Positions 51,798-51,990 of a stretch of DNA of 64,000 bases are shown here, piece by piece (the first letter of the stretch is position 1; every line of letters begins with the position of its first letter). The stretch covers positions 1,753,751 to 1,817,750 of the forward strand of contig NZ_CP013015.1 in assembly GCF_001577525.1 (NCBI RefSeq), read 5' to 3'. The stretch is from Candidatus Desulfofervidus auxilii. GTDB taxonomy: Bacteria > Desulfobacterota > Desulfofervidia > Desulfofervidales > Desulfofervidaceae. Both the position numbers and the translations under genes were made by a program. The notes under the pieces were generated by a model. It saw nothing but the letters and a program-made list of their open reading frames with translations, did no database searches and was not told where the DNA came from.

Positions 51798-51990
51798 AAA
51801 AATGATTTGGTATAACTTTTGCTAGGGATTTTAACCAAACTGGGTGCTACAGCTTCACAAGACTTCCTAATGGTCACTACTTGCTTGTAGTTGATACCCT
51901 CGCTGATATTGCCATTGGCCCCCATCCTTCAAGGAGAGTTATAGAGTGCAGCGGAAGGACAATTACAAACGTAGATTTTGAGTTGAAGTA
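51798..51990 (+). pseudogene. Orphan 3' gene remnant (~64 codons) duplicating the CarbopepD_reg tail of the gene at 56775-58058
   Basis: It translates to FGITFARDFNQTGCYSFTRLPNGHYLLVVDTLADIAIGPHPSRRVIECSGRTITNVDFELK*. The last ~135 nt are ~80% identical to 57920-58058. There is no upstream coding continuation. Confidence 0.55.

Follow-up and report, generated by a model that had tools for sequence, protein, structure and literature searches.

How did the 3′ end of a gene come to stand alone, in frame and with no gene attached to it, some 6 kb upstream of the intact gene that it resembles? The question is raised by positions 51822–51994 (forward strand) of the 64,000-nucleotide (nt) stretch of Candidatus Desulfofervidus auxilii DNA analysed here, which we refer to as the window. 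In thermophilic consortia that oxidise methane and alkanes, this organism acts as the sulfate-reducing partner. A first-pass annotation had proposed that the orphan tail (‘the relic’) marks the edge of an inserted cassette or, alternatively, serves as a handle for the swapping of N-terminal modules.

When 51700–52030 was compared with the whole window by blastn, the only match other than self was to the 3′ end of a gene encoding a 427-aa protein: 51822–51994 aligns with 57889–58061 over 173 nt at 80.3% identity (E = 1.4e-41). At the protein level the similarity extends over 55 aa (72.7% identity, tblastn E = 2e-25). The two segments are direct repeats 6067 nt apart with the reading frame kept, and they are by far the largest repeat that a repeat search detected within 50.2–60.7 kb. 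The search for further copies of the tail confirmed this pair and yielded nothing beyond it, neither blastn nor tblastn finding a third copy in the 64-kb window. The initial description of an orphan in-frame copy, about 80% identical in DNA to the end of an Ig/CarbopepD_reg gene that terminates at 58058, is thus accurate. It had overestimated the length, at about 64 codons: the open frame has 61 codons (51806–51988, FGITFARDF...NVDFELK) followed by a TAA stop codon at 51989–51991, and the DNA homology is limited to the last 57 codons, the stop and 3 nt beyond. The frame is preceded by an in-frame TGA, and stops are abundant in all three frames between 51640 and 51805, as expected from the reported lack of an upstream ORF. 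We found no ATG or GTG that could open the frame, and its single in-frame TTG is internal and lacks a ribosome-binding site (RBS). The GGAGG at 52018 and the ATG at 52030, which belong to the downstream 626-aa gene, come after the relic stop, so that the orphan tail does lie just ahead of the RBS of the next gene.

The homology has a sharp left edge at 51822. Upstream of this position the DNA similarity in both local and global alignments is at the level of shuffled sequences, and neither DNA nor protein comparisons revealed any relationship to the remainder of the 427-aa gene. We built a profile HMM of the family C-terminal domain (92 residues, from 21 family tails); it aligns to the relic at positions 38–92 only (77 bits, E = 4e-26), and no counterpart of profile positions 1–37 was found there. 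The relic thus begins mid-domain, inside the C-terminal β-sandwich. Accordingly, a search of the locus for a complete 92-residue C-terminal domain was negative, as was a search ahead of the tail for an RBS with a start codon, a signal peptide or an N-terminal module. Descent from the family is supported by 73% amino acid and 80% nucleotide identity to the resident tail, as well as 55–67% amino acid identity to other members. Truncation within a domain and lack of translation signals, together with its absence in a conspecific genome (the L041 contig, see below), characterise the element as a gene relic. We also looked for signs of an RNA function. Rfam returned no match at the gathering threshold, the sole match with E ≤ 1 being a eukaryotic snoRNA model at 17 bits, and the relic showed no excess RNA structure compared to shuffled sequences (folding z = 0.37). 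The relic is predicted to be unable to encode a folded protein, and an RNA function was not detectable in these searches.

The intact partner gene (56775–58058, forward strand) encodes a secreted protein identical to AMM41601.1 of Candidatus Desulfofervidus auxilii. An N-domain of ~148 aa is followed by two Big_7 Ig domains and a CarboxypepD_reg-like C-terminal domain, the Big_7 and CarboxypepD_reg assignments being those of Pfam. Homologues, mostly labelled Aminicenantes, come in a long form (~447 aa), a short form that lacks Ig domains (~270 aa) and others with different N-terminal modules; the number of Big_7 Ig domains per member ranges from zero to two, and in P0011 a CARDB N-terminus is joined at the first Ig domain. 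The complete C-terminal domain is present in all family members, and module junctions fall at domain borders (~aa 148 and ~aa 338 of the 427-aa protein). No orphan tails were found at about 20 other family loci (L013–L020, L028–L035 and L037–L041), each of which has one family gene; the distant loci among them, L013–L020, are not syntenic with the relic position and are uninformative for this site. In a genome collection that excludes the window's own genome, a single-protein scan gave no match and a domain-alignment scan gave seven loci, none from Desulfofervidus. Neither the 427-aa nor the 626-aa protein has a match in plasmid and phage collections.

Two observations on the family deserve mention in their own right. 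In L037–L039 (1–11359), a CARDB-headed paralogue of the P0011/P0185 type, 78% identical to the 427-aa protein across the Ig-plus-tail part, lies directly after a contractile-injection-system baseplate cluster (CIS_tube, Phage_base_V, PAAR, gp25 and Tail_P2_I). The adjacency hints at a possible use of the Ig-plus-tail module as a fibre or for target binding. The 427-aa protein is also present, with one to two substitutions, in two 2.5-Mb records named ‘Candidatus Methanoperedenaceae archaeon GB37/GB50’, which look like the Desulfofervidus partner genome deposited under the name of its archaeal partner.

The relic lies at the boundary between two gene groups. Upstream is a cluster with 33% GC that encodes a PFL-like glycyl-radical enzyme, 286-aa and 151-aa proteins, a radical SAM protein, 307-aa and 312-aa proteins and, immediately on the left flank, a metallophosphoesterase (MPE; 50347–51636, forward strand, Pfam Metallophos). 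Downstream, at ~40% GC, follow the 626-aa and 613-aa genes, a C13 peptidase gene, the 427-aa gene, a C25 peptidase gene, two small genes and a C1 peptidase gene. GC content steps up at ~52.0 kb but not at 58 kb. A Pfam scan of the ten genes between 49.4 and 61.5 kb detected peptidases, Ig domains and, in the paralogous 626-aa and 613-aa genes, weak DUF6923 matches, and no integrase, transposase or reverse-transcriptase domain. The block proteins have no PADLOC or NCBIfam match, save for one NCBIfam score for the 613-aa protein of 22 bits against a cutoff of 600 bits.

To the left of the relic lies an AT-rich spacer (51661–51821, forward strand, 26% GC), for which we detected no relatives, the only matches being near-identical strain contigs. 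It contains a mini-ORF of 12 codons (51669–51704, MKEIAYMLKTV and stop) behind a GAGGTG at 51657; in L005 and L012 this mini-ORF has lost its ATG through a 1-nt deletion. The 5′ stub is suggestive of the start of a lost family gene, but its score against the 427-aa gene start does not exceed those against other gene starts, and we do not claim it as such. Promoter-like sites are weak consensus matches only (4 found vs 1.7 expected), and the promoter/terminator scan gave no terminator.

How the relic relates to strain variation became clear from L041, a contig of the Candidatus D. auxilii MAG GCA_030262805.1. L041 matches the window over 51413–51660 at 94.8% identity, continues directly with 56758–58134 at 99%, and then passes straight to 60543–64000 at 98.2%. 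The end of the MPE gene is joined directly to the 427-aa gene, and there is no relic. Two blocks, both on the forward strand of the window, are absent in L041. The 5.1-kb block 1 (51661–56757) comprises the spacer, the relic (160 nt inside the left edge), the 626-aa gene (52030–53910), its 613-aa paralogue (53938–55779), the C13-type peptidase gene identified with Pfam (55806–56660) and the intergenic DNA that follows it. Block 2 (58135–60542) comprises the C25-type peptidase gene (58141–59802) and the 102-aa and 120-aa genes. The slot of block 2 is located immediately after the 427-aa gene, ahead of the C1 peptidase gene; it is empty in L041 (1600–1622) and filled by a 758-aa gene in L036 (114–2612). 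Both L041 junctions fall on the A-rich/ribosome-binding-site motif AAAAAGGAGG, which precedes genes on either side, and the short repeats flanking the missing blocks are imperfect. The sequence of block 1 is present at 98.7–100% identity in 11 metagenome and assembly contigs from independent samples (L003–L012 and L023), of which L005 (51474–57082) and L012 (51525–54072) additionally contain the end of the MPE gene; L001 and L002 extend from the MPE gene as far as the relic. DNA near-identical at the same level (98.7–100%) is found in many Guaymas Basin and hydrothermal metagenome contigs.

Block 1 is therefore strain-variable, with the relic inside it and the full 427-aa gene outside, so the two tails are not the ends of the variable DNA. 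The suggestion that the orphan tail marks the edge of an inserted cassette holds insofar as it lies at the margin of a block that some strains have and others lack; the limits proposed for that block, 51997–58058, do not, since the real block spans 51661–56757, includes the relic and excludes the 427-aa gene. The synteny comparison called for by the first-pass annotation also speaks to the alternative that it had set against its own reading, namely a universally present block next to an independent gene that had simply decayed: the block is not universal, as L041 lacks it, and no full-length gene was found at the relic position in relatives, and so that alternative does not apply. The empty site is represented by a single MAG contig, the left flank of which is more divergent (94.8%) than the right (99%). 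As to the direction of the change, we lean towards loss in L041 through recombination between short A-rich/RBS repeats, because both missing blocks end RBS-to-RBS and because the flanking repeats are imperfect, unlike fresh target duplications. The divergent left flank of L041 also fits homologous recombination of the whole segment with a divergent strain.

We searched for the intact parent of the relic more broadly. A word-indexed search gave only two 36-aa fragments at contig edges, and the closest tails in an exhaustive search of 1.84 billion representatives did not exceed 60%. As no relative was found that carries an intact family gene between the MPE gene and the 626-aa gene, the parent gene is one that we infer and do not see.

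The pattern of substitutions is informative as to how the relic evolved. It differs from the resident tail by 34 mismatches, distributed over codon positions 1, 2 and 3 as 10, 6 and 17, and because of this excess at third positions, much of the 20% divergence would seem to have arisen under selection, while both copies were parts of working genes. With a P0011-type gene as the third sequence, the changes private to the relic are 9 nonsynonymous and 5 synonymous as compared to 6 and 10 for the intact gene; 7 residues of the relic and 3 of the intact gene occur nowhere in the family alignment. The private changes of the relic thus point in the direction of relaxed constraint, although the numbers are small and neither this contrast nor that between codon positions is statistically significant. 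At the same time, the relic keeps 19 of the 19 family columns conserved at ≥90%, and the chance that 9 nonsynonymous changes would all avoid these 19 among 55 codons is roughly 0.02. It appears to be more intact than expected after long neutral decay, and the pattern would fit a gene that diverged under selection and lost its function relatively recently. Identity between relic and tail is highest in the central core (90–97%), which includes an exact run of 32 nt at 51914–51945, and drops to ~67–73% at both ends. A mosaic test with the P0011-type paralogue as third sequence was not significant (max-chi-square permutation p = 0.19).

The exact run has a practical consequence. All Logan contigs, assembled with a k-mer of 31, end at 51943 or start at 51916 (L001–L004 and L007 among them), positions that correspond to the edges of the 32-nt exact repeat. 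Short-read assemblies break here because the relic shares this exact repeat with the gene tail, and the relic is, consequently, a systematic short-read assembly breakpoint. The start of the L036 contig (1–113) carries a hybrid tail: nucleotides 1–67 are identical to the relic, being of relic type at 6/6 diagnostic sites, and the remainder is identical to the tail of the 427-aa gene, with the switch located inside the shared 32-nt core. The first 97 nt of this contig, which derives from a mixed-strain metagenome, are 100% window-type, and the rest is 82–89% identical. The hybrid is either a rare recombination product or an assembly chimera, and its identity pattern looks like that of a chimera. 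If the hybrid tail is real, the relic is not entirely inert.

The relic is not the only sign of rearrangement in its surroundings. The MPE gene, which follows the 312-aa gene in the window (50328–51660), stands directly after the PFL-like gene in the closest relatives, L021 (7886–9193) and L022 (2644–3979). L021 (~97% identical to the window) shows 95% identity over the MPE gene and 97.7% over the PFL-side segment; L022 (80–85% identical) shows ~80% over the MPE gene. In both relatives homology to the window stops 1–22 nt past the MPE stop. The gene order suggests that, in the D. auxilii lineage, either the MPE gene has moved or the cluster is of recombinant origin. A second gene relic at 46799–46966 consists of the first 56 codons (MKYTVKLVLDLSEIKRYPELRK...) of a large gene, of which L036 has an intact copy (758 aa, 201–2477) and the end of the L021 contig (11458–12966) a stretch of at least 503 codons; window homology to the 758-aa gene stops at 46966, and the frame ends shortly after. 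The cassette downstream of the relic, too, occurs elsewhere. Homologues of the 626-aa gene (60–75% identity) are found in four other metagenome contexts (L024–L027). The complete 626/613/C13 trio is present in L025, where it stands after a small ORF and is followed by a glutaminase-domain gene, and in L026, where a radical-SAM remnant immediately precedes it. In L024 a patatin gene is followed by the 626 homologue and a 613 homologue that is truncated, and the C13 gene is lacking; L027, a different context again, ends inside the 626 homologue. No family gene or tail was found near the cassette homologues in L024–L027. Relocated genes, gained or lost blocks and gene relics make the region from 46 to 61 kb, around the cluster of secreted peptidases and the Ig-domain protein, a hotspot of such changes.

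Three further observations concern individual genes of this region. L041 contains an orphan 3′ end of the 312-aa gene (6699–6933, 94.5% identical to window 50063–50282), called as a 75-aa ORF beside pdxA about 1.6 kb past the equivalent of the right end of the window; with the full 312-aa gene upstream, a tail orphaned ~15 kb further on would match the geometry of a single-crossover insertion of the whole 50–65 kb segment. The 307-aa and 312-aa genes (48431–50294) are adjacent paralogues with ~71% nucleotide identity in parts, and in L022 they form one fused gene of 606 aa (6545–8365). Finally, the 613-aa gene contains four degenerate direct repeats at 55142–55563 (period ~123–141 nt) with a GIxWDGKYLW-type motif, consistent with a β-propeller-like repeat protein.

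Could the duplication of the tail have been generated by insertion? In this scenario, recombination took place between an ancestral copy and a block that ended in a family gene or carried one, for instance through a Campbell-type single crossover in the tail, which would leave one tail at each end of the inserted DNA (~51995–58061). The direct-repeat tails, 6067 nt apart, indeed bracket the cassette and the body of the 427-aa gene, much as attL/attR duplications, formed when phages and ICEs enter the 3′ ends of tRNA or protein genes, bracket accessory genes; GC content rises at ~52.0 kb, and the cassette is known from other genomic contexts in other organisms. However, such an insertion predicts an empty site with the order MPE, spacer and single tail, whereas L041 shows MPE and then the intact 427-aa gene. 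The empty site does not equal excision between the repeats, the indel has its actual boundaries at 51661 and 56757, and the resident 427-aa gene was evidently not the split target that insertion into an ancestral copy implies. A crossover into the resident full gene would also place the orphan downstream of the cargo, and the orphan is here upstream of the gene body, unlike in attL/attR pairs, where it is on the far side of the element. Nor is there a GC step at 58 kb, the 20% divergence of the copies is too old for a polymorphic event when compared to the 1–2% seen between strains, and the ten genes scanned encode no integrase or transposase domain. We consider an origin of the pair by insertion unlikely.

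A different possibility is that the relic has been kept because it is useful, as a silent donor or recombination handle for the tail of the 427-aa gene, either varying the C-terminal domain by gene conversion or allowing the 6-kb block to be deleted and restored. The L036 tail, relic-type for 67 nt and then of the full-gene type, is what such exchange would produce, the relic is in frame with its conserved family residues all kept, and the family combines varied N-terminal modules (for example CARDB in P0011) with a conserved C-terminal part. A promoter-less partial copy near an expressed gene for a surface or secreted protein also recalls the orphan modules of Rhs/CDI systems and silent cassettes of the pilS type. 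Those orphans, however, hold the variable part, often with an immunity gene, and stand in arrays downstream of the expressed gene, whereas here there is one silent copy, upstream, with the conserved C-terminal segment of the protein and no variable payload. The hybrid is seen at one contig end only and has a chimera-like identity pattern, none of 14 full-length alleles of the 427-aa gene has relic-type residues, the tail alleles being almost invariant across these 14 strains, and the mosaic test was not significant. Moreover, the relic starts at position 38 of the 92-residue domain, off the family module borders, and the ~20 other family loci have no orphan tails, which also speaks against the proposed handle for N-terminal swapping. 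A role as silent donor is, in our judgement, improbable. We would give a similarly small chance to the related reading in which relic and gene tail form a working 173-nt direct-repeat pair that occasionally gives hybrid tails or deletes the 6-kb segment, the exchange proceeding through the 32–48-nt identical core. If this were true, the pair would act as a recombinational switch on a secreted Ig-domain protein and the adjoining peptidase cassette in Desulfofervidus populations, both of them candidates for cell-cell interaction in alkane-oxidising consortia, and the L036 hybrid tail would be the first trace of that switch. That the 3′ end of a surface-protein gene should be nearly duplicated only a few kb away is likewise, at least superficially, reminiscent of the TR/VR pairs of diversity-generating retroelements, with the relic as template repeat and the gene tail as variable repeat. 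This reading is refuted by the mismatch spectrum, which is not adenine-specific: 15 of the 34 mismatches fall at relic adenines and 4 of the 34 at gene-tail adenines, the others being distributed among C, G and T. No reverse-transcriptase domain was found in the ten neighbouring genes scanned, and among the 14 strains the tail hardly varies. The relic could, lastly, have belonged to a small partner gene, the 323-nt interval 51669–51991 being the wreck of a gene for a signal peptide and one CarboxypepD_reg domain, on which gene conversion from the 427-aa gene later imposed a new 3′ half. The RBS and ATG of the interval do sit at the place where, in L022, a gene for a 106-aa secreted CarboxypepD_reg-like protein begins 13 nt past the MPE stop; this gene is 321 nt long as compared to the 323 nt of the interval. 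But the similarity of its protein to the tail is not significant (BLASTP E = 0.74), the upstream half, read in the relic frame, gives no match to the family profile, the upstream DNA similarity is at shuffle level, and an extra conversion event is needed. We regard a decayed partner gene as very unlikely.

The explanation that we favour, and hold to be probably correct, is that the relic is a dead, 5′-truncated remnant of a second Ig/CarboxypepD_reg-like family gene that lies in a strain-variable block. This second gene would once have occupied the position directly ahead of the 626-aa gene, whether in the present lineage, where it bordered the cassette as a paralogue, or in the organism that donated the block. 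It would have diverged from the resident gene by ~20% while still functional, after which a deletion or rearrangement left only its last 57 codons. The block would later have been gained or lost as a unit, with its junctions at short A-rich/ribosome-binding-site repeats; the order of these events and the direction of the last are what we infer from the comparisons above. The locus resembles truncated pseudogenes at the borders of accessory blocks: it is 5′-truncated, has no start, lies beside a conspecific indel in a region with other relics and relocated genes, and does not need mobility genes. Unlike the usual truncated pseudogene it has decayed little, its frame being open and none of its conserved residues lost, and it has an intact paralogue 6 kb away in the same orientation, which creates a 173-nt direct repeat through which recombination is possible in principle.

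The relic is an ordinary gene remnant in a rearrangement-prone accessory region and calls for no new mechanism. The practical value of this result lies in annotation and comparative genomics of Candidatus D. auxilii: the relic should be annotated as a pseudogene fragment, and the strain differences in the peptidase/Ig-protein cluster that surrounds it could matter for cell-surface or partner interactions.
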